Shown one piece after another: positions 2,270 through 27,287 of a stretch of 64,000 nt of DNA. A program made the position numbers and the translations under genes. Location: the IMG/VR virus record IMGVR_UViG_3300037156_000148, positions 5,687-69,686 of that record, one strand, 5' to 3'. This stretch comes from a virus. Within the stretch, counting starts at the first letter, position 1; each line of letters starts with the position of its first letter. The notes under the pieces were generated by a model. That model saw only the letters and a program-made list of their open reading frames with translations, did not search any database and was not told where the DNA came from.

Positions 2270-2362
2270 TTTTACCTATGCTATCGGTGTCATTGCTCTT
2301 TAATTATAGAACAAAGATACCTGCGCACTACGCAATGAACTTACGTAGTAAAATAAAATCTT

Positions 2363-2385
2363 GTACATCCAAATATATCATTGCC
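2363..2385 (-). repeat. IS1595-type terminal inverted repeat (right end) bounding the type IIG R-M gene
   Basis: Reverse complement GGCAATGATATATTTggatgtac; terminal 15 bp identical to the TIR at 7227/11363. Confidence 0.75.
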
Positions 2386-2390
2386 ATAAT

Positions 2391-3110
2391 TTATAACCAT
2401 TTATTTTCAGCTAACCGTTTGTCTTCTTCTTTCTTCCCTGCTTTGATTTTCTTCAAAGCCTCCTCACGCTTGATATTATCGCGTTGCTGTTCATTATACC
2501 GCTCCTGTACTTGAAGGGATAGCTTTTTTAATTCCTCCCCCTGTTCTAAAAGAGCCTCAACATAACCTAAAGGTATATCAATTCCAGTCTCTAGTATGCT
2601 CTTCATTGATGGCTTGGCATCATCGAACCTATATACTAGCGTCACCTCTACCCTGTCGGATTTATCAATTTGACGCTGATGGAACAGCACCTTATCATTC
2701 AGTTTGTACAACCCGTTCTTTATCTTGATTATTAATCCCTTACGAGCAACCAGTCTGCCAAATAGCTGTGATACCGTACCTCTCGTCAATCCTGATGCCT
2801 TAGAAACGTGGCTAACACTATCATTCGTCCATACAAATTGAGATTTATACTTATATAGGCTTGTCAGTGCTAAAAGTATTAATATTTGCCCATCACTTAA
2901 CCCAAACGCTTCTCGTATGTTTTTAAGGTGGACAAACAAAAAATCCATCCTGTCTATGCCCTTAACCATCCTGCCCCTTTGTACGGTACTTGTTAAATCT
3001 TCTCTGTCCGTATTATCTTGTACCTCTGGTGTGAAATTCCAATCCACCCGCTTACGAGACTGTTCAGATGTTTTTAATCTCTTTTTTATTTTATCATTTT
3101 CGTATGCCAT
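2391..3110 (-). CDS. RepL-like winged-helix DNA-binding/replication protein
   Basis: HTH segment VSHVSKASGLTRGTVSQLFGRL followed by wing GLYKLNDKVLF. Confidence 0.5.
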   Translation of the reverse strand: MAYENDKIKKRLKTSEQSRKRVDWNFTPEVQDNTDREDLTSTVQRGRMVKGIDRMDFLFVHLKNIREAFGLSDGQILILLALTSLYKYKSQFVWTNDSVSHVSKASGLTRGTVSQLFGRLVARKGLIIKIKNGLYKLNDKVLFHQRQIDKSDRVEVTLVYRFDDAKPSMKSILETGIDIPLGYVEALLEQGEELKKLSLQVQERYNEQQRDNIKREEALKKIKAGKKEEDKRLAENKWL

Positions 3111-3154
3111 TATATGTCTATATCTAATTTACCGTACACAAATGTACCTTTTTA

Positions 3155-3185
3155 TTTGGAAACTCAAAAATATTTAGTAGGTTTG
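3155..3185 (+). promoter_or_regulatory. Bacteroidota housekeeping-sigma promoter
   Basis: TTTG (3155) N19 TAGGTTTG (3178), just upstream of ATG 3190. Confidence 0.6.
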
Positions 3186-3189
3186 GGAA

Positions 3190-3465
3190 ATGAAACAAAG
3201 CACTAAATTAAACTGGAACGATTGGAAAACCTTTTGGCTGTCACACTGGAAGATGGTACGCAATTACTTTATCTACTTGTGGTATAACCTAAAGACTTCG
3301 GGCGCAGCCTTTGTAATTGTAATAGGGCATAATGTTTTTCAAAGGGGAGACACATTGAATGTGGGACTGCCATCACAAATTATAGTTCTAAAGAATCTTG
3401 GAGAAGATAATCAAGGTCATTACTCATTGATAGTCAAACTATACCAACATGAAAAAATTACTTAA
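3190..3465 (+). CDS. Hypothetical phage protein
   Basis: ORF downstream of promoter, overlapping next ORF. Confidence 0.5.
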   Translation: MKQSTKLNWNDWKTFWLSHWKMVRNYFIYLWYNLKTSGAAFVIVIGHNVFQRGDTLNVGLPSQIIVLKNLGEDNQGHYSLIVKLYQHEKIT

Positions 3466-3652
3466 CAACATCAAAACTTGGTGGAAGCACTACCTCGATC
3501 TCCGGCATCACGGGGTCAATCCGCATAGGAAGCTATACACTAATAATGGTATCATTACAATACCTAAAGGTAGACACACAATAAAACTACCTTCACACTG
3601 GGCTTCCTTTGATAACGACATCCACCAAGACGAACAACATCAAATCAATTAG
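3449..3652 (+). CDS. Hypothetical phage protein
   Basis: Operonic ORF. Confidence 0.5.
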   Translation: MKKLLNNIKTWWKHYLDLRHHGVNPHRKLYTNNGIITIPKGRHTIKLPSHWASFDNDIHQDEQHQIN

Positions 3653-3654
3653 TT

Positions 3655-3927
3655 ATGAAAGTAATGAGCCTTAGTATAAATAGAGGAAAGGATGTTTGTG
3701 TTGGAATCAGAATACGAGCATATGATGCAATATCGGGTGAAGTGGTAGGGGAGTTTGATAGTGCGACTAAAGCAGCAAATAGTTTATTTATTCATAGATG
3801 TAGCATTGGTTCTATTATAAGAAATGCTACTCAAATGGCTAAATTACAAAAAAATGGGAAAGGTAGAATGAAGGGGATAACGTCTTACAAAACTGGACTT
3901 AAATATAATTTCTCCATAATCAATTAG
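3655..3927 (+). CDS. NUMOD1-like HTH DNA-binding protein
   Basis: GEVVGEFDSATKAANSLFIHRCSIGSII matches the NUMOD1/IENR1 pattern. Confidence 0.6.
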   Translation: MKVMSLSINRGKDVCVGIRIRAYDAISGEVVGEFDSATKAANSLFIHRCSIGSIIRNATQMAKLQKNGKGRMKGITSYKTGLKYNFSIIN

Positions 3928-4022
3928 CCAACACCCCCTCAAATACAATATAATCCCTTGATCTATACCCGTTAAATAGCTAACAACTCCCCGTATAACC
4001 GGCCCCATATCCAAAATAAATA

Positions 4023-4045
4023 GGCAATGATATATCAATTTACAC
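4023..4045 (+). repeat. Solo IS1595-type terminal repeat (left end)
   Basis: GGCAATGATATATCAATTTACAC, 21/23 identical to the TIR at 7227. Confidence 0.8.
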
Positions 4046-4105
4046 TAGATAACTTATTAAAATAATCATACATTAGCTTTATTATTAAACCATAAATTAT
4101 ATATC

Positions 4106-4321
4106 ATGGCAAACGAATTATTTAAGGAAGGAGATAGGCTAAGAATGAAAGATAGTGTTACACATGCTCAAAACTCACGAGCGGAAGATGTGAGAGATCA
4201 GACATTGCTATTTGTTCATTATAGCAATAACATCAGCGATCCTAAAATGGTAGGATGTAGAATAGAAAATGGAGGTGGTGGAATTTTTACTTTCGCCGAA
4301 AATCAACTTGAAAAAATATAG
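4106..4321 (+). CDS. Small hypothetical protein, likely IS cargo
   Basis: 71-aa ORF immediately inside the 4023 IR, followed by a terminator. Confidence 0.55.
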   Translation: MANELFKEGDRLRMKDSVTHAQNSRAEDVRDQTLLFVHYSNNISDPKMVGCRIENGGGGIFTFAENQLEKI

Positions 4322-4330
4322 CCTTATTTA

Positions 4331-4359
4331 TAGCCCTCTCCAAAAGAGAGGGCTATTTT
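4331..4359 (+). terminator. Intrinsic terminator hairpin
   Basis: TAGCCCTCTC-caaaa-GAGAGGGCTA followed by TTTT. Confidence 0.7.
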
Positions 4360-5187
4360 CCTATTTGCCTTTTGCACCTGTCATGTCAGTCCATTGCTTT
4401 ATAGTAAGCCCCCTTTCCTGTACAGCTTTTAGTACGGCGCTCATTTGAGCGCCATCATATTTCTTATTATATTTTTTCTCCCAAGCATCTAGAAGGCAAA
4501 TCACCGTAATATCTTATCAAATTCGTCCTGTTACCGCCCTTGTTGAAGTAGATAGACTCGATCATGAGGCAAAGGTAATATTTCATACAACACACCGTAC
4601 CGACAGCGTACAAGGCCTAATTATACAAACATACCACCTACCGCTACTGACTGAAATTTCATAAGTGTAAGAGTGTGTTGCCTGGTGGTGGGGGGGGGGC
4701 TTGTGAGGGGCGTTCCGGGATCTACCGGGTGCCTTCCAAAAAAGGAATTTCCCGCAAAAGATTTAATAGATGGTCAAATACCTACCGTGTAAAGTCGGGG
4801 AGTATATGTCTAACTGGTCTATGGTCTGCACAATGTGGCTAAATGTAACGTATCTAAGGCGTGAGGGGAGAACTATATCAAGCCAATGGATTGTGTCATC
4901 TAGGGTTAAAGTGTCTTAGATTGGCTGTGAATGATTAAACTATGATAGATAGCACTGCGTATTTAACATAATAGTATTTTTATGTTACAATTTGACTATT
5001 GATTATCAATACTAATGTGAATAGTTATAAAGTGTTGACAGTTTGGCAGACTAATGAGGATTGAAACTATCTTAATCAAGACATTGAATATCATTCGATT
5101 AACCCTATTATTGTCTTATAAGCCTATTTGAAGTCGTTTTAAACTCGATGGATGGATTTGAACTAGGGGAATGTGGGGAGGATTGCC

Positions 5188-5664
5188 TTAAATGTACTTT
5201 AGATTGGATGGATACTTACTTACTCTTGATCCATGAAACAGGCAAACGGGGTTAATATGATAGGTGCCGGAGATTGAACTACTACATATAAGGGATGATT
5301 GCAGCAGTTCTTTTATCCCTCTTTGATATGTTCGTTTGGTTACGATTGCCTTTTTGCAATACAAATCTACATTGATGTGAATATTATCATGACCGGCCTG
5401 CAATGAGTATCCAATCCAGATCCATAAGCTCAAAGCGGAACCGGTGAGCCGCATTACGGTATCCCGAACGCGAGTATTATTAAATACCTTGTGATAATCA
5501 TCTGCATCAAGCCAGACCTCTTTAGGAGCTAAAATTGGCGACAAAATTGTCCCAACGTTCACAAGTTCTTTAGTAGGTGGAAGCATCCTAACAGGAACCT
5601 CAAATCTACTGTTAGCAAAGGGATTAGCCTCTTTTGGACCCGATTTTATTGGTATGTCTTTCAT
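5188..5664 (-). CDS. RepL-like winged-helix protein
   Basis: KRTYQRGIKELL..GTYHINPVCLFHGSR resembles the RepL C-terminal signature. Confidence 0.6.
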   Translation of the reverse strand: MKDIPIKSGPKEANPFANSRFEVPVRMLPPTKELVNVGTILSPILAPKEVWLDADDYHKVFNNTRVRDTVMRLTGSALSLWIWIGYSLQAGHDNIHINVDLYCKKAIVTKRTYQRGIKELLQSSLICSSSISGTYHINPVCLFHGSRVSKYPSNLKYI

Positions 5665-6112
5665 TTGGCAAATATACTACAAATAATAGCAATAACGACA
5701 TTGATGTCATTATAATTATTAATCATAAATAAGCCACACAAAGCGTTTAAGGGCCAATTTAACAAATAAAGAATTGTGATTGTATTATATAAGCACTATT
5801 TTTATTCAAGGAAAGCACACGCATTAGCGAGGGGGGTTATACAGTCATTCGCCTATCATTTACCTTGTGATATTTTGATAGTCCCGATTTTGTGGTCTTT
5901 TTTAAGCTGTTTAAGGCAGTTCATTATCTTCCTTGTGGATTGGTCATTTATTGGGAGTTATGACCTTGTGAGAGAGATTTAAGGCTATTTCTTGGGGTTA
6001 TATAGATTTTATTGTGGTGGATGTGCTGGATCTGCGAGATTTGGAGCTATGGAGTAGGTTAATGAGGTCTTATGATTGTTTCCGCTTCGCTCCAACTTAA
6101 CCGGCTACGCCT

Positions 6113-6304
6113 TTAAGGATTAAAAAAAACTGCAAATGTTTGATCCCATCCAGGCAGCTTTATACATAGCGCTTTTCGTCTTTGGCTTAGTCTCTGTCTA
6201 TCCTTTTCAGACAATTGCAAATGATTTGTGACCGACAATTTTAGATTTATCTCATTAATTTCGGCGTGTCTTTTGTCCTCTTTGATTGCTTCCTGGTCTG
6301 TCAT
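6113..6304 (-). CDS. Hypothetical phage protein
   Basis: ATGA overlap with upstream ORF. Confidence 0.5.
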   Translation of the reverse strand: MTDQEAIKEDKRHAEINEINLKLSVTNHLQLSEKDRQRLSQRRKALCIKLPGWDQTFAVFFNP

Positions 6305-6480
6305 AACGTGGCTTTCAGGTCTTTAATCATGAGATCATTTATATACTTCGTAGGACTAGCTTTGCCGTCCTTATTGGTATGCTTTAATTCCTTACAACGC
6401 TGTATTAGCAAGGCTTTCAAGGCTATTGGTAAGCGTCCTGATACTGCGTAATATTCTTTATTTTCTTTTAATCGTGCCAT
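6301..6480 (-). CDS. Small ribbon-helix-helix-like regulator (59 aa)
   Basis: Manual translation MARLKENKEYYAVSGRLPIALKALLIQRCKELKHTNKDGKASPTKYINDLMIKDLKATL. Confidence 0.5.
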   Translation of the reverse strand: MARLKENKEYYAVSGRLPIALKALLIQRCKELKHTNKDGKASPTKYINDLMIKDLKATL

Positions 6481-6550
6481 TATTGCATTATTTAGTTAGT
6501 GCGAATGTACTATTTATTAATTAATTCGCAAAGGTTAATTATTTAATTCA

Positions 6551-6573
6551 GGTAATGATATACAAATTTACAC
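6551..6573 (+). repeat. Degenerate IS1595-type terminal repeat (left end of an older element)
   Basis: GGTAATGATATACAAATTTACAC, 19/23 identical to the TIR at 7227. Confidence 0.7.
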
Positions 6574-6624
6574 CGAATGCCTGAAATAAAAAGCCCTACT
6601 GTTAGTAGGGACTTCGATACTCGA

Positions 6625-6693
6625 TTATCTAAAATCTATTCTCTTTGTCTTTAATACTAGCAGTAGGACTGCAATAATTATTACCGTTGTCAT
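6625..6693 (-). CDS. 22-aa hydrophobic peptide, type I toxin-like
   Basis: MTTVIIIAVLLLVLKTKRIDFR followed by hairpin at ~6591-6614. Confidence 0.35.
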   Translation of the reverse strand: MTTVIIIAVLLLVLKTKRIDFR

Positions 6694-6780
6694 CGCTGAT
6701 TTGGGTTTTATTATTTTCAATAGCAAGCAAGCCTTTCGGGTTGTCCATTGCATTGTAAATATATTAAAATCTGTCGGTTA

Positions 6781-7226
6781 TTATTTGTTCTTCTTTTTAG
6801 AACTCGTTCCCTTATTAGCTTTCTTGGGTTTCGCATCAGGGTCAACATCCTTATTCTTTGGTGGTTTTGGCACATCAAGCATTCCCTTTAGTAGCGTATC
6901 AAAGGGCTTTTCTTCTTTTGGAGTATCTTCTTTTTTGACCTCTTTAACTTCTTTGTCAGGCTCTATATCATTTACCGTTAGTTCAAGTTGACCATGTTTC
7001 CGCTGGTTCATTTTATTGAAATTCTCTAAAAACTGTTTCCAGTTATCTGAGAAACGCATGATAGCTATAACCTGATTTAGTTGCGCCGACAAGTGCGGGT
7101 TGCCTGTATCGGGTGTTAGGCTCTGAAAAAAACGCGCTGTATAATTACCAGCTTTGCTTTTCGGGGTTTTCTTCTTTAATTCCTCAAGAACACCTTTTGG
7201 TAATTGCCGATATATAACATTGTTTG
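6781..7226 (-). pseudogene. 5'-truncated P63C-domain protein
   Basis: Frame is open up to the TIR at 7227: NNVIYRQLPKGVLEELKKKTPKSKAGNYTARFFQSLTPDTGNPHLSAQL, the P63C C-terminal half. Confidence 0.8.
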
Positions 7227-7341
7227 GGCAATGATATATTTATTTACACCTCAGTCCAGTAAAAATACCATAAATTCTTGGGTGGGGATAAAATGTTAAT
7301 CAAATAAATTCGTTTCTATTTCCCGTTTCCTACTTTTAAAG

Positions 7342-8562
7342 ATGCTAAGAAATACAGCCGAATATGATGTGCTCACAAATGAAGAAAGGAGCATTACGAT
7401 TTATAAGGAAAACAACACCCCAACCGATTCTTCAAAAGTAACAGCCAAAACACCCCTTTCTGAATTGAATCTAAATTGGTCAGAAAAGGATTTGCCAGAA
7501 AGAAATAGAACAAAGCACGTTCACAGGCTACACCCGTATTTGGGAAAATATATTCCTCAACTTGTTGAAATATTTTTGAGGAAATACTTTAAACCAGGTC
7601 AAACAGTCCTTGACCCGTTTAGCGGTTCAGGAACAACGCTTGTTCAGGCCCAGGAGCTTGGCATCAACAGTGTGGGCTTTGACATTTCAGAATTCAATGT
7701 AAAATTAGGAGAGGTAAAAACAGCGGATTATAATATTCCTCTTTTAAAAACAGAAATAGCGGATATACTTAAACAAATGGAGGGTAATTTGTTTTCCGGT
7801 AATGTCGATGTAGACAAACTGGTAAAAGAAAGCAACGATTATTTGCGCCAATGGTTTGCGCCAGAAGCGCTTCGGCAGCTACTTCTGTTTAGACATTTAT
7901 TAGAAAACTATACATATAAAGACCTTTATAGAATTATCTTATCCCGATCAGCCAGATCGTCAAGATTAGTTACTCATTTCGATTTAGACTTCCCAAAAAA
8001 GCCCCAAATAGACCCATACCACTGTTATAAGCATTCGAGAATGTGTCAGCCCACAACCGAGTCTATTCAATTTTTAATAAGGTACTCATTAGACACAGTA
8101 AAACGAATTGAAGAATTTTCAAAACTAAAAACTAAAGCTACCGTATCGGTTCGGCATGTTGATAGTAGATACGGTGATCCGGGGCAAGTGGACGGAATAA
8201 TTACATCTCCCCCTTATGTGGGATTGATTGACTATCACGAACAACATACATATGCCTATAATTTATTGGGGTTAAAAGATAATTCAGAAAGCGAAATAGG
8301 GCCTGCCAAAAAAGGGTCAAGTATAAAAGCAAAAGAGGACTATAAAGCAGCTATGGCCCAAGTTTTCCTAAATACAAGTAAGCATGTAAAGGAGAAAGGG
8401 AAAATAATTGTTGTAGCTGGTGATAGAAATAATCTATATCCTGAAATTGGAGAAAGAGCAAATCTTCGATTAGATGCTAAAGTTGAAAGGCATGTTAATA
8501 GAAGAACAGGAAGACGCTCTACTCCATTTTTTGAAACGGTTTTTATCTTCACCAAAAAATAA
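7342..8562 (+). CDS. Type II DNA methyltransferase, probably N4-cytosine
   Basis: HRLHPYLGKYIPQL, motif I VLDPFSGSGTT, motif IV ITSPPY. Confidence 0.9.
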   Translation: MLRNTAEYDVLTNEERSITIYKENNTPTDSSKVTAKTPLSELNLNWSEKDLPERNRTKHVHRLHPYLGKYIPQLVEIFLRKYFKPGQTVLDPFSGSGTTLVQAQELGINSVGFDISEFNVKLGEVKTADYNIPLLKTEIADILKQMEGNLFSGNVDVDKLVKESNDYLRQWFAPEALRQLLLFRHLLENYTYKDLYRIILSRSARSSRLVTHFDLDFPKKPQIDPYHCYKHSRMCQPTTESIQFLIRYSLDTVKRIEEFSKLKTKATVSVRHVDSRYGDPGQVDGIITSPPYVGLIDYHEQHTYAYNLLGLKDNSESEIGPAKKGSSIKAKEDYKAAMAQVFLNTSKHVKEKGKIIVVAGDRNNLYPEIGERANLRLDAKVERHVNRRTGRRSTPFFETVFIFTKK

Positions 8563-8574
8563 TTCTCTCTTTAA

Positions 8575-9405
8575 ATGGCTAACGAAAATGTTGCTGAAGG
8601 GATAAAACTGGTTGTTCAAACTATGATGGACAGGGTTATGAATAACGTCCTTAATGTAGACCCCTTTCTGCCGGACGTACACAAAGCGAATAAACCATTA
8701 TACGCTGCTCTTGTCCCTGATGAAATATTTAAAGGTTCTCATTTTGAAAGAAGGTTTGTTACTCCCTTTGGTGGTGTTTGGGAAAAACTTGCCAAAGTAG
8801 TGGCCACAGAAGCATTAGGTAAATGTGAATTAGGTTTTATGATTCACGGGAATGTAGGCATGGAAAGGCTTAGAAGGATAAGCGAGGTTTTAAATAACCT
8901 TGAACATTCAACAAAAGGAAAAGATAGAATACATCCTGAATGGGAAAGGGAACTTAACTATATTTTAGAGGGCGGTGGAGAAATGATACCCGTTCATGTT
9001 ATATGTGATGTGTATGTGGAAGATGTGAAGAACAATTTGAAATACTCTTTTGAGCTAAAAGCACCTTTGCCAAATAGCGATCAAACCAAAGTAAGCAAAG
9101 AGAAGATTTTCAAGTTATATGCAATGGAGCCACGAATTATTAACGAGGCGTATTATGCTCTGCCATATAATCCATACGGTAAAAGAGAAAATTATGAGTG
9201 GTCTTTCCCGGCCAGGTGGTTCAATATGAAAAAAGACCCGTCCGTATTGATAGGGGATGAATTTTGGGATAAAATTGGCGGGAATGGAACCTATCAACTG
9301 TTTATCTCTGAGATCAACAAATTAGGGTTGGACTACCGAGAAAGAATTTATAGAGAGTATTTAGGAATTGAACCGCCAGAGGGATTTGATGATATAAAAA
9401 TATAG
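8575..9405 (+). CDS. Type II restriction endonuclease, TdeIII/MjaII-like
   Basis: FERRFVTPFGGVWEKLA, catalytic CDVYV..FELKAPLPNSDQ, ALPYNPYG; adjacent to the MTase. Confidence 0.85.
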   Translation: MANENVAEGIKLVVQTMMDRVMNNVLNVDPFLPDVHKANKPLYAALVPDEIFKGSHFERRFVTPFGGVWEKLAKVVATEALGKCELGFMIHGNVGMERLRRISEVLNNLEHSTKGKDRIHPEWERELNYILEGGGEMIPVHVICDVYVEDVKNNLKYSFELKAPLPNSDQTKVSKEKIFKLYAMEPRIINEAYYALPYNPYGKRENYEWSFPARWFNMKKDPSVLIGDEFWDKIGGNGTYQLFISEINKLGLDYRERIYREYLGIEPPEGFDDIKI

Positions 9406-9410
9406 ATCAA

Positions 9411-10358
9411 TCATTGTTTATCTTTTCTGGGTGGTGGTGTGTTTAATAGTATTGTCAACTTTTGGTCGAAGGTAGGTTCATTTTTTTTTTGATTGCTTTG
9501 ATAGTCTACAAAAGTAGAGTGCGTTTCTTTCTTTAATGTTTTAATAGTATCAAGTGAATCCAATGTTTTCCTTTGGTCTACAACAGTCTCTCGAAGAATT
9601 TTAAAACGTTCTTTTTTAGGTAATCCATTTTTTATCAAAATAGAATTTAAACTCTCTAAATTAGACAAGATAGCTAATTCATTTATGCTTGCCATATCTC
9701 TTAAATTCTCACCGTTTAAGGCCCTATCTGGATATGTTTCTCTCCATCGTTTAGCGGTAATACCAAATAAGGCAATATTCAAAAGGTCAACTTCATCAGC
9801 GTACAATAACCATTCTTTCGCCTGAGTATATCCCGCTTTGGGAACGATATAATTTTTCACAGCCTCAGTATGGATGTAATGATTTGCTTTACTAAGTATT
9901 CTTTTTACATTCCACTCTAACCCGTATTGATTGCTTTCTATCTCTTTAAGACGCTGGTACTCTTTAACGATGTATAGCTTAAATATAGGGCTTATGGCTG
10001 CCCCAAATTCAAATGCTATATCTTTGTGGGCATAAGTGCCGCCTGTTTTCCCCAATTTTGAATAAATACCTATTGCTTTCGTGGCTTCAACCCAAGTGCT
10101 TACGCTCATTGTAAATGTCGGTAAACCAGCCTCTTTTCTAAAGTGGTCAAATTCGACCACTTTAAAATTCGGGTTATAAATAGTCTCCCAAGTACCTAAA
10201 AACTCAATAGTCCCCCTCCCCCTTATCCAGTTTTTAATTACATCTGCCGCCCGTGCATCTGCTCCTTTTGCCTTTACCATATCCGTAAGGCAGATAAAAT
10301 CATTTTCAATATTTATCTCTGTACCTTGTACAACTATTTTAGTTAATTTACTGTTCAT
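9411..10358 (-). CDS. KilA-N domain DNA-binding protein
   Basis: DFICLTDMVK..IKNWIR..TIEFLGTWE..GGTYAHKDIAFEFG. Confidence 0.9.
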   Translation of the reverse strand: MNSKLTKIVVQGTEINIENDFICLTDMVKAKGADARAADVIKNWIRGRGTIEFLGTWETIYNPNFKVVEFDHFRKEAGLPTFTMSVSTWVEATKAIGIYSKLGKTGGTYAHKDIAFEFGAAISPIFKLYIVKEYQRLKEIESNQYGLEWNVKRILSKANHYIHTEAVKNYIVPKAGYTQAKEWLLYADEVDLLNIALFGITAKRWRETYPDRALNGENLRDMASINELAILSNLESLNSILIKNGLPKKERFKILRETVVDQRKTLDSLDTIKTLKKETHSTFVDYQSNQKKNEPTFDQKLTILLNTPPPRKDKQ

Positions 10359-11274
10359 TATTCTTGCTTATTAGGGTTTCGTAAGTCAATCTTTTGTCGT
10401 TCGCATTAGCCAAAACTACATTAAATCTGTCATTCGTGGTATTCTTACGAGTGTTATATCTTAGGGTGTATTCGGTCACGTATGAATTAAGATGCTCCAT
10501 GCTAACGTGGTGGTAAATTCCGGTTACTCCCCTTTGAAGATGAGACCAGAAATTTTCAATTCCGTTCGTATGTACCATACCCCGTACAAACTCTTTAGCA
10601 CTGTGATTGACTGATTCGTGAAAGTGTTTTTTATCTAAACCATTATAAGCATTGTATTGATCTGTCATAAGGATAGCCATTTCAGGTATTGTATTGTTTA
10701 TGACAGGTAGAATATGTTTTTTCTCAACGGTAGGGACGGCCTGAGCAACAACTTTGCCCCCGCGCTCCATCATACCCAATACAGGGGCTTTGGTGCTTAT
10801 AGTGCCTCCACGTTCGTTTTTTACTTTCTTATTCTCATGTTTGTTCTTAGCCTCTCCACCGACAAAGGTTTCGTCTATTTCTATAATCCCGCTAAGATGT
10901 ATATTCCCTTCTCCAAAAGCATGGCGCAAACGGTGTAAGATGAACCAGGCTGTTTTCTGTGTTACTGTGATGTCTTTAGCCAACTGGTGAGAACTGATAC
11001 CCTTCTTATGCGAACTGAAAATATACAGAGCTAAGAACCATTTTTGTAAGGGTATGCGGGTACAATCAAATATTGAATTAGTACGAACATTAAAATACTT
11101 TCCTGTATTTTTGCATCTGTATTTATTCCCCGCACACGCATACACTTTAGATGTAGGGTCAAGGGGACTAACTACATTGCCATGCCAGCGCAATTCCGTC
11201 AAGTGGTCTATGCAAGATTGTTCGTCAGGAAAGGCTTTAAGCAGGTCAATGATTGATTTGAATTCTGTGAGCAT
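10348..11274 (-). CDS. IS1595-family DDE transposase
   Basis: N-terminal Zn-ribbon-like region, KKGISSHQLA HTH, IEIDETFVGG, MTDQ, HTNGIENFWS. Confidence 0.95.
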   Translation of the reverse strand: MLTEFKSIIDLLKAFPDEQSCIDHLTELRWHGNVVSPLDPTSKVYACAGNKYRCKNTGKYFNVRTNSIFDCTRIPLQKWFLALYIFSSHKKGISSHQLAKDITVTQKTAWFILHRLRHAFGEGNIHLSGIIEIDETFVGGEAKNKHENKKVKNERGGTISTKAPVLGMMERGGKVVAQAVPTVEKKHILPVINNTIPEMAILMTDQYNAYNGLDKKHFHESVNHSAKEFVRGMVHTNGIENFWSHLQRGVTGIYHHVSMEHLNSYVTEYTLRYNTRKNTTNDRFNVVLANANDKRLTYETLISKNNEQ

Positions 11275-11355
11275 ATATTTGAATTATGGTGTAAATATAT
11301 GCCTAACTTTTGAGAACACCAAACTTATCTCAATCTTTCTGTGTAAATAAATATA

Positions 11356-11553
11356 TCATTGCCGTACTTTTACCTTATTATTGGGAGGGTCATTGTCATA
11401 TTGGCTACAATAACCATCCAGATGTTGTAAATACTCAAAAGCCTTCACCCCCTCTGGATGAATAGCCTCTCCCTCTTCCCACTCTTTTTTTATAGTAGCA
11501 AGGGGGGTATTCTTTATATACCACCTAAGCCAAGTGAGCATTGTGTTTTCCAT
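11356..11553 (-). CDS. Hypothetical phage protein whose stop codon is supplied by the IS TIR
   Basis: ORF ends in ...CGG CAA TGA inside the GGCAATGA terminus. Confidence 0.45.
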   Translation of the reverse strand: MENTMLTWLRWYIKNTPLATIKKEWEEGEAIHPEGVKAFEYLQHLDGYCSQYDNDPPNNKVKVRQ

Positions 11554-11878
11554 TTTTGATAGTTTTAAGCGTATGTTTCGATTATATAATCTTCAGGGTA
11601 CGCTATTTTATAATTATGCAATAATAATGCCGTTTTATCAATAAAACAAATTTGGATAGGGGGGTATAAGTCTAAAACAGCGGGCTCTCTCCGTGAAAAT
11701 CTCACAACATGCCTAAATCTTTTATCCCAAAATATATCTCCCTTATTCTTACCTAAAGCCCTGATAGCTCTTTTGAGTTGTGCGAAATATCCCTCAACCG
11801 AGTTAGTACAAAGGTAAACTATTTTGGAAACTTTAAAACTAAAAATAAAATATTTATTTGGAAACTTTTATCGTATAA

Positions 11879-12106
11879 ATCAAATATTCTACCTATCTTC
11901 GTTCTACAATTAAAAGGATTAGACATATTGAACCAGAGCCATTTGAAAGAGAAACGCCAACTCTTTTAACTCAGGTGGTAACTGAATATATAAAAGAGAT
12001 CAGTAAATCAATGGAAGGATTGGCACACCAATTTTCATTAAGCATGGAGGATTTTGAAGCGCGATATTTCCCGCAATCTGAAAAGCGCCTAAAAATCATA
12101 AGATAG
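11879..12106 (+). pseudogene. C-terminal fragment resembling XRE-ImmA/IrrE metallopeptidase fusions
   Basis: Frame lacking an upstream start: ...RHIEPEPFERETPTLL..SMEGLAHQFSLSMEDFEARYF..RLKIIR*. Confidence 0.4.
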
Positions 12107-12110
12107 TATT

Positions 12111-12134
12111 AAGCCCCTCACGGGGCTTTTTTTT
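12111..12134. terminator. Terminator between convergent ORFs
   Basis: AAGCCCC-tcac-GGGGCTTTTTTTT. Confidence 0.7.
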
Positions 12135-12333
12135 ATTCAACTTGTCGAGGGCCAATTGCTTCATATGCTGGAAACTCAGCTTCTCTTGGGGTCGGATATA
12201 AATCCCATATTCCTTTACATATTCTTTCGGCATCCTCCATTGAATTGGCAATAAATGTGATGTCCAAAAAGACCTGCACAACATTATCGTGTCCTCTTCC
12301 TACTGTCTGAATCTTGTAATTAAATCTTGGCAT
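12133..12333 (-). CDS. Small hypothetical protein
   Basis: 66-aa ATG ORF ending at the terminator. Confidence 0.45.
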   Translation of the reverse strand: MPRFNYKIQTVGRGHDNVVQVFLDITFIANSMEDAERICKGIWDLYPTPREAEFPAYEAIGPRQVE

Positions 12334-12488
12334 AATTATAGTTTTGCATCTAACTTACACATTTATCTTTAAATCATATATCTTTCAAGTGTTCTGAGGG
12401 GATAAGTGCCAAAATTATGGTATTTGTTTACGTTAAATTATGTATCTTTGATCCATGCTTAGATTCAGTAACCAAAAAAATTAAACAG

Positions 12489-12776
12489 ATGGAACATAAA
12501 AAGCAAGAGATTATGGTCATCAATGGAGTGTCTAAGTATTTTCATGTTCAGGTATCAGGCAACACTATATTTATGAGTAGTGAAGATTTTGAATTTATGT
12601 ATACCGTTGCTGATGACGTAGTGAAAGACGAATTTAAAGGACAGTATCTGTATATAGGTGGAATACAGCATAATTTTGAAAATGAATCCCCCGAAGCTAT
12701 CGAATTAGAAAGAAAATTGTCAGATGTGGCTTTTGCTATTATGACAACGTTAGGCAGGCAAAAACTCACTAACTAA
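12489..12776 (+). CDS. Hypothetical protein
   Basis: Likely start MEHKKQ, downstream of a TTTG..TATCTTTG promoter-like site. Confidence 0.5.
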   Translation: MEHKKQEIMVINGVSKYFHVQVSGNTIFMSSEDFEFMYTVADDVVKDEFKGQYLYIGGIQHNFENESPEAIELERKLSDVAFAIMTTLGRQKLTN

Positions 12777-13148
12777 ATAATGGCAAAAGTAATCACCGCA
12801 GCAGTCAGGGAGGGAGGAAATAAATCGGGATATATGAATATTATTTCAGTCCTAGTTTTTCTAATGTTAAAAGTTTGCTAGTCTTATATATCGCATAGGC
12901 TCGGGACTTAGCTTGAATGATACGCTCAGTATCGGCTATCTTTTGCTCGATTATAACATGGCATTGTAGTTTGTCTGATCTGGTCATGGGAGTGGTTTTA
13001 AAATGGATTTACAATTGAGTGATGGATAGTATCAAGGAAGGCCATACTAAGGCGATACAGGGCATCCCTGCGCGTCTGAGTGGGGTATCGCTTGTAACGA
13101 TAGTATAACTTTAGGTATTTCTTTCTCACGATTTGATTTTTAAACTAA

Positions 13149-13687
13149 GGCAACTATATACTTATTACACCCAAATGGGTTTTGTTATTAAAATAAGGTG
13201 ACTATATACTTATCTAACCCAATTCGAGTTTATGGTTTAAAAATTACTATCATTGAGTCAAGCGGATTGCCATTACCCATCTTCGTCCTTTTACCTGATT
13301 CATCGAGTTTTTCAAATGATATCCTACCTTTCACAAATCTTATCTCCGAGGCATTGGGTTTAATATGCTCATGAAATAGCTTTGTACTCGTGGAAACAGG
13401 GATTAACAGTACTGATGTCCTGCCTTTTTTCTTTTCATCTATCGCCTTGAGTATAAACGCCTTCTTTAATTCGGGCGAATAAGGGGGATTAACAAAATTA
13501 CATTGCCCCCACTCTATTTTTAGTCCATCATTTACTATTTCGCCTTCGCAGTATGGGCATGGATCTAAATCAAAATTGAATTCCGCGTGTAGTGGCTCGT
13601 AAACCGATAAGGGAGTAAGCCAGTTGTCATTTTCTTTTCTTTTCATTGTATCTTTTATTGTTCAGGTTGAATAAGTATATAGTTGCC
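13149..13687. mobile_element. Non-autonomous IS1595-like cassette carrying an orphan Dam methyltransferase
   Basis: 18-bp perfect inverted repeats GGCAACTATATACTTATT at 13149-13166 and 13670-13687; extra degenerate end at 13197. Confidence 0.75.
13230..13646 (-). CDS. Phage-type DNA N6-adenine methyltransferase (Dam family)
   Basis: WLTP, FDLDPC, FVNPPYS, EIRFVKGRISF. Confidence 0.9.
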   Translation of the reverse strand: MKRKENDNWLTPLSVYEPLHAEFNFDLDPCPYCEGEIVNDGLKIEWGQCNFVNPPYSPELKKAFILKAIDEKKKGRTSVLLIPVSTSTKLFHEHIKPNASEIRFVKGRISFEKLDESGKRTKMGNGNPLDSMIVIFKP

Positions 13688-13691
13688 GGTT

Positions 13692-15137
13692 TTAAAATGG
13701 AATATTTGTCTCAATAGCTTCATCCTTTGGTGTTAATCTTTTTTGCTCCACATACTCCCCGCCAGTGTCATAGTCCCAATCGTAAAATTTTACATGCTCT
13801 TTTTGAAATCTTGCAGCTAGGTCAATTGTGGCACCGTCTCTGTACTTCGCCACTATCAATTCACATAAGTCTTTTGTTTTACCGTAAAATGGATCATTCT
13901 CAATGCCGTAGTATTCGGGCCGGTGAAGGAAAACAACAATGTCAGCATCCTGTTCGAGCGATCCCGATTCCCTCAAATCTGTCAATTGTGGCTTATGGAC
14001 TGCCGACCCCTTTACGGGCCTGTTCAATTGAGCCATAGCTATCACAGGAATCTTTAACGACATGGTAAGCTGCTTACACCCTCGCGAGATAGCACTTACT
14101 TCCTGCTCCCTGTTCGCGCTGTTTTTCATGCCTGCAATCTTGCAGAGCTGAATATAGTCAATGTATAGCCTTGTGATCCCTTTTTTCTGTACCCATTTTT
14201 TAGCCTGGGATAAAATTGATCCCCATTCGAGCGAGGTATTTTCAGATAAATAAAGAGGGTATTTTCCCACTTCCTCCGAAATCAGCATTATCCTTTTTTG
14301 AGTTTCAATGTCATTTCTCCCATACTTTGAGAAGTGCCTGAGATCAATATTTCCCTCCATTGAAATTAATCTTTGACCTAGCGACACATCGGACATCTCA
14401 CCGGATATGAACCCGACCGGATCACCTCCCTTTGCCTGTTTTCGGGCCGCGTCTAAAGCAAAAGCCGTCTTGCTCATGCCAGGCCGACCGGCTATTATCA
14501 CAAAATCGGTACTTTGAATATTAACATTTACATCAAAATCACCCAAATGCATGGGATGTTCACTTTTACCCGACCTTTCAGCCGATTTAAGCACTTTTAA
14601 TGCCGACTCTTGCATTACTATTGCCATGTCCCTGTTTTTGCCCCTGTCGAAGCGAGAATTGATAATATCATAGGTTGAGCGCATATTATCCAGTACGTCT
14701 ACAAAGTCTACATCTTCGTCATAGGCCTTGACAATGGTTTCCGATGATCCCTGTATGACTGCCCGCTTGATATATTTTTCAGCTATCACCCGCGCGTGAT
14801 ATTCCACATTGGCAGAGGTCCCGACCTTATTTGTCAATTGAGCTATGTAGTAAGCACCCCCGCACATTTCGAGATTACCATCTTTTTTAAGCTGTTCAAC
14901 TACCGTCAATAGGTCAATCGGACTGCCTGCGGTGTGGAGCGTCCTCATGGCCGTGAAAATATACTGATGATTAGTGACATAGAACATGTCGGCATCGATA
15001 AAACTTACTATCTCGTCCATAGCATCAGATTCGATCATGATAGCGCCGAGGACAGCCTCTTCGAACTCCCGCGCCTGGGGAGGTAGTTTCCCCATTACCT
15101 GCAATTCCAGATCCACCCGTGTATTTTTATTGTTCAT
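13692..15137 (-). CDS. dnaB: Replicative DNA helicase
   Basis: LPPQAREFEEAVLGA, GRPGMSKT, IDYIQL, AQLNR, DLRESGSLEQDADIV, VAKYRDG. Confidence 0.95.
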   Translation of the reverse strand: MNNKNTRVDLELQVMGKLPPQAREFEEAVLGAIMIESDAMDEIVSFIDADMFYVTNHQYIFTAMRTLHTAGSPIDLLTVVEQLKKDGNLEMCGGAYYIAQLTNKVGTSANVEYHARVIAEKYIKRAVIQGSSETIVKAYDEDVDFVDVLDNMRSTYDIINSRFDRGKNRDMAIVMQESALKVLKSAERSGKSEHPMHLGDFDVNVNIQSTDFVIIAGRPGMSKTAFALDAARKQAKGGDPVGFISGEMSDVSLGQRLISMEGNIDLRHFSKYGRNDIETQKRIMLISEEVGKYPLYLSENTSLEWGSILSQAKKWVQKKGITRLYIDYIQLCKIAGMKNSANREQEVSAISRGCKQLTMSLKIPVIAMAQLNRPVKGSAVHKPQLTDLRESGSLEQDADIVVFLHRPEYYGIENDPFYGKTKDLCELIVAKYRDGATIDLAARFQKEHVKFYDWDYDTGGEYVEQKRLTPKDEAIETNIPF

Positions 15138-15930
15138 GTCCGAGGTCTTTAGCGGTTACGGGACGTACTTTTTTATCTGTAATAGCCGGCAATGGGTTTT
15201 GATTGAAATCTTTATTTCGCGAAGCCCACGTACTTAGTCTTTGCCCTAGTGACCATGTTTTTTGAAGCTCAAATCCCATTTTAGTAAAAGTTTTATTAGG
15301 CTGTATCCAGTATTCGTAAAATGCCTTAATCATTTCAATCGGATAAAGTTCCATATACGGGGTGAAGGTCATTTTAAACTCAATCGCTCGTTTTTCTAAG
15401 GATGCCTGTTTTTCTTCGATAGTTTTGCTTTGTATTTTATTATCTCCTTTACTCTCCTTTACTCTAGTTTGTGGTAAATCTGTGACAGTAATATCCTGCA
15501 TTGTGGTAGTTTCTGTGACAGTAACACCTAGTGATGTGGTAAATGTACCGTTTTTACGCCTTTGCCGACTAGCACTTTCTTGTTTTGCTTTGTGTCTTTT
15601 TTCATAAACAGGGGCTAAGTATTCATCTAATGAAGGGGAGAATAAAAACCCATCTCGTATAAATAGGACTTCTACTTTCAGGCAATACTCAATGATCTCT
15701 TTTATTTCTGTGGCAGAAACTCCAAGCTCTGAGGCGAAGCTGTCCCACTCCATTTCTACATGCTCAATCTCGTTCCCGTCGGCCTCAGTCAAATATTCTA
15801 AAAACATTGACCAAAAAGCATAACCTAAAACTTGACCAAATTTATTTCGCAGTATCTTAACCTTCTTGTGATTCCGCATAGTAGTTAGGTGCGGGAAATA
15901 ATCACAGTTATTTTTCGGAGGTCTTGCCAT
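15127..15930 (-). CDS. Phage replication initiator (DUF4373/Lin1244-like N-terminal wHTH, lambda O analogue)
   Basis: MARPPKNNCDYFPH..NHKKVKILRNKFG..GYAFW, C-terminal AFYEYW..TW; directly upstream of dnaB. Confidence 0.8.
   Translation of the reverse strand: MARPPKNNCDYFPHLTTMRNHKKVKILRNKFGQVLGYAFWSMFLEYLTEADGNEIEHVEMEWDSFASELGVSATEIKEIIEYCLKVEVLFIRDGFLFSPSLDEYLAPVYEKRHKAKQESASRQRRKNGTFTTSLGVTVTETTTMQDITVTDLPQTRVKESKGDNKIQSKTIEEKQASLEKRAIEFKMTFTPYMELYPIEMIKAFYEYWIQPNKTFTKMGFELQKTWSLGQRLSTWASRNKDFNQNPLPAITDKKVRPVTAKDLGHEQ
15469..15543. repeat. Iteron-like direct repeats inside the initiator gene (candidate origin)
   Basis: TTGTGGTA..TCTGTGACAGTAA twice plus a partial TGTGGTAAAT. Confidence 0.45.
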
Positions 15931-15950
15931 AATAAAAAATCGGAATATCA

Positions 15951-16044
15951 AGAGGGGGAGCCGCAACGACGAAGAAGAAGCTCAACCCCTCTATCAATTC
16001 CTTATCTTAAATAAATTATAAATATATAGCATGTTCGTCGTTGC
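15951..16044 (-). promoter_or_regulatory. Structured 5' leader of the replication operon
   Basis: AGAGGGG/CCCCTCT stem; the enclosed GCAACGACGAA (15963-73) is the inverted complement of TTCGTCGTTGC (16034-44). Confidence 0.5.
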
Positions 16045-16302
16045 TTATTGCGAATATAGCACTTTATTCCGTCATTGCAAATTTAATTAGAAAGAAAAAT
16101 AGTATCTAATTCTTTAGCGTGTCCTTTACCTTCTTTTTGCACCGGATACAGAATAATCCATTTTCGGGATCTTTCTTATTGTTATCGGGATCTAAAAAAT
16201 ACCATTCATTTTCCATTTTTTTTCCTTTCATTCGACAAAGTTAGAAATTAATTTCACAATCCAAACACTTTCAAATCTTTTTTATTTTATTTTCAAAATA
16301 AA

Positions 16303-16333
16303 TTTGGAAGTGTCAAAAATGTGCTTACTTTTG
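16303..16333 (+). promoter_or_regulatory. Bacteroidota housekeeping-sigma promoter of the rightward early operon
   Basis: TTTG N19 TACTTTTG; divergent TTTG..TAACTTTG on the minus strand at ~16235-16265. Confidence 0.65.
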
Positions 16334-16352
16334 TGTCGTTAAATAATAAACA

Positions 16353-16590
16353 AATGACAAGAATAGAATCAATAGAATACCAAAAAAAAATAAAATCACT
16401 CTGTAAAGAGTTCGGGAAATATGGCCATGAGCGCGTTGATGGTGGCTATTCTAACTACCATATAGAAAGTGTATTAAAAATTTCTGTCCCCAACGAATTG
16501 AAGTTAATAGGCATCCTCAAATACTTTCAAGGCTTAAAATCTGCGAAGGATGCTGAGATCGAAAAAGCCAAGTCAGAATTAACTAAGTAA
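16353..16590 (+). CDS. Hypothetical early protein (possible regulator)
   Basis: First ORF after the promoter, likely start MTRIESIEY. Confidence 0.5.
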
Positions 16591-16617
16591 CAATTTCACA
16601 ATCATAAATCAACAAAA

Positions 16618-16833
16618 ATGGACAACTCAGCATTGGTATCAACACCAAAACCCAAAAAGACGCGTGAGCGCAAACAGACAGGTAGCTATATCGGAGGATT
16701 AGCTACTAAATTATCACCGGTGCAGGATGAATATCTGAAATCGGTGCTTAAAGATCATTTCGGGACTGCTGATGTCACAGGACTATCAGTTTTCGAGAAA
16801 GAGATATTCGCAGGGATTGCGGCTATTCTCTAA
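16618..16833 (+). CDS. Hypothetical phage protein
   Basis: ORF with A-rich Bacteroidota-type translation start context. Confidence 0.55.
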   Translation: MDNSALVSTPKPKKTRERKQTGSYIGGLATKLSPVQDEYLKSVLKDHFGTADVTGLSVFEKEIFAGIAAIL

Positions 16834-17034
16834 AAATATTGATTGCGATAAGCAATTGTGGATGTGAGAAGTGTATGGCATACAGTTGGTTCAAGGCCGA
16901 CCTCACAGCATATCCCCGTTCTTAGTAAAGTAAGAGAAATGTCCGAGACAGTAACCGCTTCGTTCTCGCATGACGAAAGACAGATTTGAGAGGGTGAAAG
17001 TCCCTCCACTTTTTAAAGGCTAAAAAACAAAAAG

Positions 17035-17304
17035 ATGATAAAGTATAAGACAGGTAGTTTGTGGAGCAGCGGCATTGAACAAGTCGAGGTTGTCAGAGAA
17101 ACAGAATCGAGTGTGTTTGTTATGTATGGGACTAAGGAACGTAGGGAATCAAAGCGTACCGATTATCATAATTTCCACGATACATATGAAAATGCTATCC
17201 AGTGGTATATTGAAGGGGCGATAAAAGAAATTCATTCCGCCAAATCTAGGCTAGAAAGTGCTGAAAAGATCCTATCAGAAATCAAGGCTAAATATTCAAT
17301 CTAA
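17035..17304 (+). CDS. Hypothetical phage protein
   Basis: IEQVEVVRETESSVFV pattern common in small phage proteins. Confidence 0.6.
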   Translation: MIKYKTGSLWSSGIEQVEVVRETESSVFVMYGTKERRESKRTDYHNFHDTYENAIQWYIEGAIKEIHSAKSRLESAEKILSEIKAKYSI

Positions 17305-17313
17305 ACAATAAAT

Positions 17314-18318: not shown

Positions 18319-18355
18319 TAACAAGGGATAAAGAAATAATCAAAATAAAAATAAA

Positions 18356-26759: not shown

Positions 26760-27287
26760 ATGAAAGCATTCAAATCAATATTAGCATTTCAAAAGCACTT
26801 CGATACAGATGAAAAGTGCAGAGAGCATTTAGAGCTTAGCAGGTGGAACGGAACACCCGCTTGTCCTTTCTGTGGCTCTATAGGTGTTCATAGATTCCCT
26901 AATGGCAGGATATTTAAGTGCAGGGATTGCCGTAAAAAGTTCTCTGTAACAGTCGGCACTATGTATGAGAATACCAAAATACCGTTGACTAAATGGTTTT
27001 TGGCAACATATATTTTAACTAATCACAGCAAGGGTATATCTTCTTTGCAGTTAGCTTCATGGCTAGACGTAACTCAGAAAACAGCATGGTTTTTAAATCA
27101 TAGAATACGCGAAATGCTGACAGAGAAAAACCCAGCACTATTAGAAGGTACTGTAGAGATTGATGAAACTTATGTTGGTGGATCAGATAAGAACAGGCAC
27201 CAGCACAAAAAGAAAGGTAAAGGCTCTAAGGCTATGTATGAATCAGAAAGGAAAGGCAAAAGCCAAAAAACTGATTATCTAAAATAA
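26760..27287 (+). pseudogene. Truncated IS1595-family transposase
   Basis: CPFC..CRDC Zn ribbon, KGISSLQLA, VEIDETYVGG; homology appears to end at ~27236 (GSKAM), lacking the later catalytic D/E. Confidence 0.88.

Follow-up and report, generated by a model that had tools for sequence, protein, structure and literature searches.

Evidence for repeated insertion of a cargo-carrying IS1595-type family, with methylation and restriction genes, into the early region of a crAss-like phage

The DNA analysed here, the window, is a stretch of 64,000 nucleotides (record 5687–69686) of the 69,686-nt linear virus record IMGVR_UViG_3300037156_000148, and our subject is the 13.9-kb early region at its left end (record 5471–19373), in which a family of short terminal repeats accompanies transposase, restriction and DNA methylase genes. 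Positions are those of the window unless marked as record. The record is only 69.7 kb long (57% complete by the CheckV estimate), and it belongs to a crAss-like phage of Bacteroidota. Its major capsid (58971–60437, minus strand) and muzzle (50606–54907, minus strand) proteins have their matches among the Crassvirus families (46 bits with a cut-off of 27; E = 1.8e-67). The early region very probably holds at least five insertions of one cargo-carrying insertion sequence (IS) family of the IS1595 type, three of them with methylation or restriction genes. The insertions, named A to E, occupy about 10.5 of the 13.9 kb (A, the block E–D–B, and C), or about three quarters of the region.

Element B (7227–11363, minus strand, 4,137 bp) is an intact autonomous transporter IS bounded by a perfect 23-nt inverted repeat, 7227–7249 being 100% complementary to 11341–11363. 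Within this one pair of ends lie a DNA methyltransferase of 406 amino acids (7342–8562, plus strand; Pfam N6_N4_Mtase, 1.7e-16; phrog_18146), a type II restriction endonuclease of the TdeIII family with 276 amino acids (8575–9405, plus strand; Pfam RE_TdeIII, 6.3e-67), an accessory KilA-N protein of 315 amino acids (9411–10358, minus strand; Pfam KilA-N, 5.4e-18) and a DDE transposase of 308 amino acids (10348–11274, minus strand; Pfam DDE_Tnp_IS1595, 1.8e-41). The transposase matches PF12762 at 142 bits against a cut-off of 27, and it looks active because its catalytic residues D134, D205 and E240 are conserved, each being invariant in 24 sequences. Where the window aligns with L010 and L011, the closest viral relatives, the nucleotide homology stops exactly at 11363.

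Element A (1–2385, record 5471–8071, minus strand, 2,601 bp) is a transposase-less cassette that begins upstream of the window, with ends at record 5471(+) and 8071(−). Its sole large gene, which is intact, encodes a type IIG-like restriction–modification (R-M) fusion of 760 amino acids (2–2269, record 5673–7955, minus strand) with the Pfam domains HSDR_N/HSDR_N_2, HsdM_N, N6_Mtase (8e-59) and Methylase_S, which combine a type I-like nuclease N-terminus with an N6 methylase and a specificity domain. Beside the start of this gene stands the terminal inverted repeat of A (2361–2385, minus strand), recognised both as motif and as repeat, followed by the right copy of a perfect 8-bp target duplication, ATAATTTA (2386–2393, plus strand), the left copy of which is at record 5463–5470. 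Since ATAATTTA flanks A on both sides with the R-M gene alone inside, A moved as a unit. No second copy of A was found in the phage genome.

Element C (13149–13687, minus strand, 539 bp) appears as a decayed cassette whose cargo is a Dam-type N6-adenine methyltransferase of 138 amino acids (13230–13646, minus strand; Pfam Dam, 3e-21; phrog_111). Its arms, 13149–13171 and 13665–13687, are 91% complementary (21 of 23 positions alike), the left end is present twice (13149 and 13197) through a 48-nt tandem duplication, and no target duplication surrounds the element now. C is probably a former cassette, and would represent an old Dam insertion with decaying ends. The three modification cargoes listed in the original prediction made for this DNA, a type IIG-like fusion, a methylase–endonuclease pair and a Dam methylase, are thus all borne out by their Pfam domains.

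Two further insertions are represented by remnants. At 6551–6575 (plus strand; profile E 6.2e-7, as described below) is the surviving terminal repeat of a truncated element, D, and at 6781–7226 (minus strand, found by tblastn), with end 6551 about 200 nt further to its left, is the 3′ remnant of a P63C-type accessory gene with 48–50% identity to residues ~200–330 of the accessory proteins of elements L127, L122 and L113. This homology begins at record ~12910, 2–3 nt from the repeat at 7227, so that the gene breaks off at B's left end. Judged by this homology, 6551–7226 is the residue of an older element of two genes that has lost its transposase side. A run left of 7227, GGTAATTGCCGATATATAAC, was considered as a repeat relic and rejected, being only coding sequence of the P63C remnant. 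Just inside end 6551, at 6590–6615, is a G+C-rich hairpin followed by T's (aaaaagccctactgttagtagggacttc), which resembles a terminator on the cargo side of D. The remaining insertion, E, is a solo end (4023–4047, plus strand; profile E 2.7e-7, the best of all ends) that points rightward like those at 6551 and 7227, with no partner and no duplication. The open reading frames (ORFs) at 4046–6550, on its inner side, match no family and none of the cargo of the other elements.

In the order of events that we infer, D would have lost its transposase side as the left end of B came to abut it, most likely by an IS-mediated adjacent deletion, which would explain both the truncation of D and the missing duplication of B; we give this history about an even chance. 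End E may be the leftover of a similar loss. Adjacent deletions are a known behaviour of IS1. The title of the 2009 study by Siguier et al. relates IS1595 to IS1. The structure here resembles that case in that an intact B end abuts a truncated D and B has no target duplication; it differs in that the event is read from a single structure, with no parental arrangement for comparison.

These elements are joined by their terminal repeats. A 12-nt motif, GGYRAYKATATA, has exact matches at 2374–2385(−), 4023(+), 6551(+), 7227(+), 11352–11363(−), 13149(+), 13197(+), 13676–13687(−) and 52692(+), and with up to one mismatch it has 15 matches against 5.76 ± 2.26 expected, a number reached by none of 100 shuffles. 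The copies run on to about 23–25 nt, with the sequence GGYAAYKATATAynwnTTTACACYA, the motif being the outer half of a 25-nt terminal inverted repeat. All eight termini that the original prediction had placed in the window are present at those positions, and reading of the whole record adds a ninth copy outside it, at record 5471(+), window −215, or 215 nt upstream of the window. A start with GG, as in the IS1595 family, is found in nine of nine ends.

A profile was built from 114 ends of duplication-flanked elements in other genomes. Their consensus, GGYAAYKATATA-ynwn-TTTACAC-YA, contains two conserved boxes, GGYAAYKATATA and TTTACAC; positions 1–12 were partly set by the search pattern itself, and positions 17–23, on which the pattern did not select directly (pairs had to be alike at 17 or more of 25 positions), are nearly invariant. 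Scanning of the 69,686-nt record with this profile placed exactly the nine ends in the top nine ranks, with E values of 2.7e-7 to 2.2e-5 for the ends at 4023, 6551, 11363 and 7227 and of 0.026 to 0.92 for five diverged ends, among them those of C with its decayed inner box (0.026, 0.1 and 0.92). The next match in the full record has an E value of only 2, and the other 50 kb hold no copies of the end. The whole-contig scan that had been proposed therefore ranked the nine ends first and returned nothing else. Two candidates were set aside as chance matches: 52692(+), where the outer half alone matches (E 5.3), and 7138–7149(−), which has one mismatch, no inner box and no duplication. The ends of this phage split into three sub-lineages, A type, B type and C type, those of D and E being of the B type; the outer box GGYAAYKATATA is common to all. 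In the ends of A the outer box is kept and (G/A)TGTAC replaces TTTACAC.

Relatives of the resident transposase were collected from viral contigs (72 loci confirmed of 80 pattern matches) and from prokaryotic genomes (451 confirmed of 530 matches, the best 79 loci being kept). The kept genome loci are nearly all from Bacteroidota, the closest, at 62–68% identity to the transposase, being Chitinophagales such as Ferruginibacter. A pair of 25-nt repeats alike at 17 or more of 25 positions surrounds the transposase in 50 of the 79 bacterial loci, and an 8-bp direct repeat stands immediately outside in 47 of these 50, a count made with a pair-picking that favoured repeats with a flanking direct repeat. 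Among the 66 viral loci with a full-length transposase gene, 43 have a repeat pair, and a duplication of at least 7 of 8 positions is found in 21 of these 43, compared with 0 of 43 in a control with the octamers shifted outward by 10 nt. A profile-based search of the fetched loci, 1.74 Mb in all, returned 74 pairs of ends flanked by a perfect 8-bp duplication, and all 74 enclose a transposase. The repeats called IS1595-type ends in the original prediction thus stand, with 8-bp duplications outside them, around homologous transposases both in genomes of Bacteroidota and in viral contigs, and with a high degree of confidence the nine repeats here are ends of IS1595-type elements. The retention of the duplication in 21 of 43 viral against 47 of 50 bacterial elements suggests frequent rearrangement or recombination after insertion in phages. 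In four gut viral contigs, facing end pairs 51 bp apart (L018 9815–9865, L020 7238–7288, L026 10942–10992 and L038 6407–6457) resemble minimal two-repeat elements beside full elements; no perfect duplication was found at them.

The duplication-flanked bacterial elements are 2,065–5,929 bp long, and R-M or methylase genes are present in 7 of the 46 that were scanned; among viral relatives the two closest, L010 and L011, have as cargo a C5 methylase and a methylase–Mrr fusion. The 74 duplications are 88% A+T, compared with 62% in the 500-nt flanks, with the loose consensus T-W-A-A-W-T-T-A, and 63 of the 74 contain a stop triplet on either strand. Taken with the conserved repeats, this pattern suggests that the transposase would recognise the 25-bp end, insert into A+T-rich 8-bp targets and duplicate them. 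In the phage, the ORF at 2391–3110 ends 5 nt from the end at 2385, the TGA of the ORF at 11356–11553 lies inside the repeat, and the dnaB stop codon (13692–13694) is 4 nt from the end at 13687. The three positions at which the prediction had placed ends at phage stop codons are therefore right, and the ends adjoin stop codons because the target is A+T-rich. Such a preference would place insertions in the short gaps after TAA stops, which is also where the phage would survive them.

The origin of A can be followed through its variant ends. A search for the A-type variant returned eight genome loci, in one of which, L219, such ends bound a 3.3-kb element with the duplication AAATATTT. The transposase of the L219 element has an intact zinc ribbon and 46% identity to the resident enzyme, and the cargo consists of an EcoRI-like methylase and a GmrSD_N–HNH nuclease. 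A and L219 also have homologous subterminal sequence at either end, with 76% over 101 nt in one region and 69% over 178 nt in the other, and at a further locus, L215, the end of A together with 96 nt of its interior recurs at 94% identity in a different flank. Elsewhere, A-type ends go with their own transposase clade, 43–46% identical to the resident enzyme, in which the zinc ribbon is intact and there is no accessory gene; PF12760, the zinc ribbon, is present in the A-type parents L219, L217 and L167. Because its ends and both subterminal regions match L219 and a transposase is absent, A is a mobile insertion cassette (MIC) of an L219-type parent. It would have been moved in trans by a transposase of the L219 sub-lineage, presumably one encoded by the host.

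The R-M gene of A is found on other vehicles. On L110, which has a flanking duplication, a transposase and a KilA-N gene, the last gene aligns with it at 63–94% amino-acid identity in six frameshifted pieces, and it is 79% identical to the cargo of L167, an IS1595-type element with a third kind of end and the duplication TAAAGCTA. The same R-M gene is thus present on three vehicles, L110, L167 and A. Homologues with 66–81% identity are present at 11 genome loci from several orders, the closest in Chitinophagales; in the nine of these that were checked for flanking ends (L174 and L175, which are gene fragments, were left out) only L167 has them, and its ends were found by an inverted-repeat search, the motif scan having missed them. 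A 66%-identical copy at L171 5001–7295 is in a metagenome-assembled genome with the label Eubacteriales, a group remote from Bacteroidota, which means either that the gene has crossed phyla or that the contig was binned wrongly.

The transposase of B departs from the family in its N-terminal region. PF12760, the N-terminal zinc finger, was not detected in it, the CxxC pairs being replaced by SPLD and CKNT, and both CxxC pairs are gone from all transposases of its clade; since the N-terminal region is clearly homologous, this is a degenerate zinc ribbon and not another family. An N-terminal-only paralogue of 175 amino acids elsewhere in the window (26760–27287, plus strand; Zn_ribbon_IS1595, 2.9e-12) has an intact zinc ribbon and no catalytic core, ending just after the first catalytic Asp, and no ends were found around it. 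That there is a single intact transposase, as predicted, holds: one full-length DDE_Tnp_IS1595 gene is present, at 10348–11274, and the other copy is N-terminal only. In two other viral contigs, L071 and L078 (5989–6501), a 170-amino-acid ORF is about 50% identical to the paralogue and has the same stop point; the N-terminal-only form may be a recurrent DNA-binding form kept by phages, for example as a transposition inhibitor.

Most of the related elements have a second gene. We scanned 46 of the 47 duplication-flanked bacterial elements; L107 was left out as it duplicates L106 within one genome. Among the 46 are 37 in which an ORF that begins at the transposase stop, or only a few bases away from it, encodes a KilA-N (14), P63C (13), RhuM (8) or Bro-N (2) protein, and the viral elements, sampled as 36 representative proteins of 50 clusters from 33 elements after eight near-duplicate loci had been dropped, likewise show P63C, KilA-N and Bro-N. 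The KilA-N gene of B overlaps the transposase stop, is 73% identical to the accessory gene of L089 and ends in the tail FDQKLTILLNTPPPRK. For most of their length the four kinds of protein have no relation to one another; what they have in common is a C-terminal tail of about 15 residues, which a strict pattern detects in 25 of the 37 accessory proteins, compared with 3 of 251 other element proteins, and which by eye is present in nearly all 37. It occurs in two forms, ...F-D-x-x-L-K-G-L-L-x-V-P-P-P-x-K and ...F-N-x-x-L-K-K-G-L-x-x-N-P-K-E, that follow the end type and the transposase clade (tail against end type, 17/1/1/17), the two odd cases being L113, a labelling artefact of the crude rule, and L124, which has a mixed tail (FNKSLKTALDHKPPKE).

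Each of the four N-terminal families is found with both tail forms. A transposase tree of 35 of the 37 elements (a filter dropped L119 and L122) has two clades, with support of 100/99, that match the tail form, whereas the accessory family changes 18 times on the tree, compared with a mean of 17.5 for shuffled labels. The elements L099 and L100, with nearly identical transposases (branch lengths 0.011 and 0.023), carry KilA-N and RhuM, respectively, and different cargo, which we read from the sequences as a very recent module swap. The conserved tail residues are encoded by several synonymous codons (F by TTT 11 times and by TTC 7 times, and one L by five codons), so that the constraint lies on the protein.

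A complex model of the transposase of B with residues 250–315 of its KilA-N protein scored 0.77, compared with 0.00 for the best of three controls, and of 157 solved complexes 116 reach the mark applied to this score, as do 2 of 215 mismatched pairs, counts that are only rough as our own alignments were used. The model runs share at least 56% of their contacts, the partner pLDDT is at least 49, and the confident interface joins tail residues 297–298 and 300–310 to transposase residues 4–120, the N-terminal DNA-binding region. A profile search found no solved relatives of either protein, and the result is therefore unlikely to reproduce a known structure. On the strength of the model, the tail somewhat more probably binds the N-terminal domain of the transposase than not. 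An adaptor role in target choice or in regulation would be a guess, and to tie the loss of the zinc ribbon to the accessory gene, the A-type parents having kept the ribbon and having no accessory gene, is speculation.

The assembly of the region is consistent across data sets. The runs that hold DNA of this phage are peat metagenomes. In Logan contigs of the probable source run, which represent the same reads put together by a different assembler, a 46.6-kb contig covers L164 1–18099 with two differences and a second contig covers 18070–20000. An independent peat sample, X2, yields 100%-identical pieces, one of which spans end E; X2 is uncovered at L164 12007–14674, and runs X3 and X4 cover little, so that uncovered parts are no evidence of absence. 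On the junction check that had been proposed, the evidence is at the level of contigs, those of the source run reproducing the whole region and one of X2 crossing end E. A depth spike with loose ends at L164 4736–4782 in all four runs is accounted for by a tRNA-Met gene, located upstream of the window at record 4728–4802 (−).

Close relatives of the phage did not come to light. Searches with DnaB and with a 239-amino-acid HTH protein found no viral relatives, a search with the Rep protein returned only mosaic or distant ones (L161–L163), and DnaB of cultured phages is at most 39% identical. The loci L010–L014 were considered as relatives of the phage and rejected: they are unrelated, with no capsid match, Crass_capsid appearing below the cut-off in only one of the five. 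Of the proposed comparison with related phages what can be said is that the distant L162 and L163 have no copy of the motif and that empty sites for A and B were not found. For C, one contig of run X3 joins L164 18830 to 19378 and skips 547 nt, which is 539 (C) plus 8 and so the size expected of an empty site with one 8-bp target copy; within the joint is TTAAATTA, an octamer also found as a duplication in three relatives.

Several observations weigh against the account of serial insertion. B has no target duplication (its flanks are ATTGTTTG and GTACTTTT), and since duplications are absent around both B and C, that these two arrived in the phage by transposition is something we infer; we ascribe the losses to decay or to rearrangement at a later time. 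Against the canonical profile the ends of A and C match weakly (E 0.1–0.9), and for neither A nor B was an empty site found. The X3 joint, the sole empty-site indication, is a weak hint, having a depth of 2.6×, only 27 nt on its shorter side and 85% likeness, and such joints being unreliable. None of the 74 duplication-flanked elements in the fetched loci lacks a transposase, in a sample biased by loci that are centred on transposases. Ends were found at 0 of 37 viral loci with Dam homologues, so that Dam is not a habitual cargo. As for the second protein, the association between tail and clade lacks phylogenetic independence, and the docking is a model in which the fold of the partner is uncertain.

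Four other explanations can be set against the one given here. The repeats might be a promoter or operator of phage early genes that merely resembles IS ends. Indeed, six copies out of nine are directed at the start of a gene 41–116 nt away (11363 at the transposase, 7227 at the methylase, 2385 at the R-M gene, 13687 at Dam, 4023 at ORF 4106 and record 5471 at a 69-amino-acid ORF), and as promoters are common within IS ends a double role is possible. However, the same repeats with 8-bp duplications flank transposases in many bacterial genera, the other 50 kb of the phage have no copies, L162 and L163, which are distant but have the Rep–DnaB module in common, have none, and the copies at 6551, 13149 and 13197 have no credible downstream gene; we reject this as the primary explanation and consider it very improbable. 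Even less credence can be given to junctions produced as assembly chimeras via the shared repeats. This is a metagenome assembly in which repeated 25-nt ends could in principle mislead an assembler, but the repeats are shorter than the reads, the independent assembly of Logan and the 100%-identical pieces of X2 agree, and neither the duplication of A nor the in-frame cut of D is expected of a chimera.

The other two keep the IS1595-type ends and alter the history. Most of the block might have been put together on the chromosome of a bacterium, from which a single recombination event brought it into the phage, a reading favoured by the absence of duplications at B, C, D and E, by inter-element ORFs with no recognisable phage function, by a G+C content lower than in the rest of the window, and by the duplications kept in about half of the viral and 47 of 50 bacterial copies, which point to much post-insertion recombination in phages. 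We regard this as unlikely, as C stands 4 nt past the phage dnaB stop, a contig from another study appears to join dnaB to the far flank, A has its own intact duplication, and the three end sub-lineages argue for separate sources. Those sub-lineages also bear on whether the resident transposase of B mobilised all cassettes, including A and C. The enzyme is intact, the ends of D and E are of the B type and the outer box GGYAAYKATATA is in all ends; in A-type ends, though, TTTACAC is missing and the cognate transposases, 43–46% identical, have an intact ribbon and no accessory gene, and the CT ends, those of the C type, go with transposases 54–56% identical to the resident one. A single enzyme is therefore improbable, if a little less so than single capture, and with three end sub-lineages probably three transposases were involved. 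The idea of one family as a cassette shuttle stands as far as the family goes; the resident transposase probably did not move A or C. Serial insertion of cargo-carrying IS1595-type elements, from more than one source, is the reading that we retain.

Cargo-carrying ISs and transposase-less cassettes are already defined kinds of element. Transporter ISs (tISs), which carry passenger genes, were described by Siguier, Gagnevin and Chandler (2009), as quoted in the excerpted text of PMC3129680 and PMC8101967; those of the IS1595 family known as tISCpe8 and MTnSag1 have 25-bp inverted repeats and 8-bp direct repeats (PMC5704250, in excerpt). The part of PMC8101967 that treats the IS1595 family gives it 8-bp duplications, GG-initial repeats and an N-terminal zinc finger, Zn_Tnp_IS1595, in all groups except IS1016. 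B resembles these tISs in its DDE_Tnp_IS1595 transposase, its GG-starting repeats of about 25 bp and the passengers inside them, with the 8-bp duplication present in its family. It is unlike the examples in those excerpts in that its host is a phage and its cargo consists of R-M and methylase genes, theirs being antibiotic resistance, and in that its clade has a degenerate zinc ribbon and a conserved second core gene with a swappable N-terminal module. The ends of the ISNwi1 subgroup in ISfinder, which we take to be ggnnatTAT, are presumably similar.

MICs, such as MIC231 from IS231, are described in the portion of PMC3129680 that concerns them as IS-related, transposase-less and activatable by a cognate transposase. 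A is like them in having IS ends, a passenger, an intact 8-bp duplication, no transposase and a subterminal match to the autonomous L219, and C has the same layout, decayed and without a duplication. A differs from the MICs of that description in its 2.3-kb R-M fusion as cargo, and in that the only resident transposase of the phage belongs to another sub-lineage. Phages are reported, in a survey, to tolerate ISs poorly and to be unlikely as efficient IS shuttles (Leclercq, Gilbert and Cordaux 2012, PMC3429520). The insertions here agree with that part of the survey in avoiding coding sequence, as they stand in A+T-rich gaps beside stop codons; at odds with it, about 10.5 of 13.9 kb are IS-derived and at least 72 viral loci carry relatives, and the IS1595 family of B is therefore not rare in phages of Bacteroidota.

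What goes beyond these known systems is the dense packing and layering of the insertions within a single phage, the presence of one R-M gene on three vehicles, and the clade-matched docking tail. We found no paper that links crAss-like phages with IS1595, none that links IS1595 with KilA-N, and, beyond unrelated papers, none that links RhuM, P63C, KilA-N or Bro-N with a transposase; nor did we find a report of the conserved tail, in a literature that did not include the full text of Siguier et al. (2009) or ISfinder.

A wider proposal, which we put forward tentatively and hold to be rather doubtful as a whole, is that these elements form a two-protein system, in which a ribbon-less transposase would be joined through the tail to an interchangeable adaptor that sets where or when the element moves. 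The family would then shuttle R-M and defence genes between host chromosomes and crAss-like or other phages, and phages would keep the methylase cassettes because these rewrite methylation; the methylases and nucleases may benefit the phage through self-protection of its DNA, exclusion of rivals or addiction. The region described here offers a base-resolved route by which phages of Bacteroidota gain methylases and restriction enzymes from their hosts, and if the second protein selects targets, the family would be a small modular system of wider interest in transposon biology.

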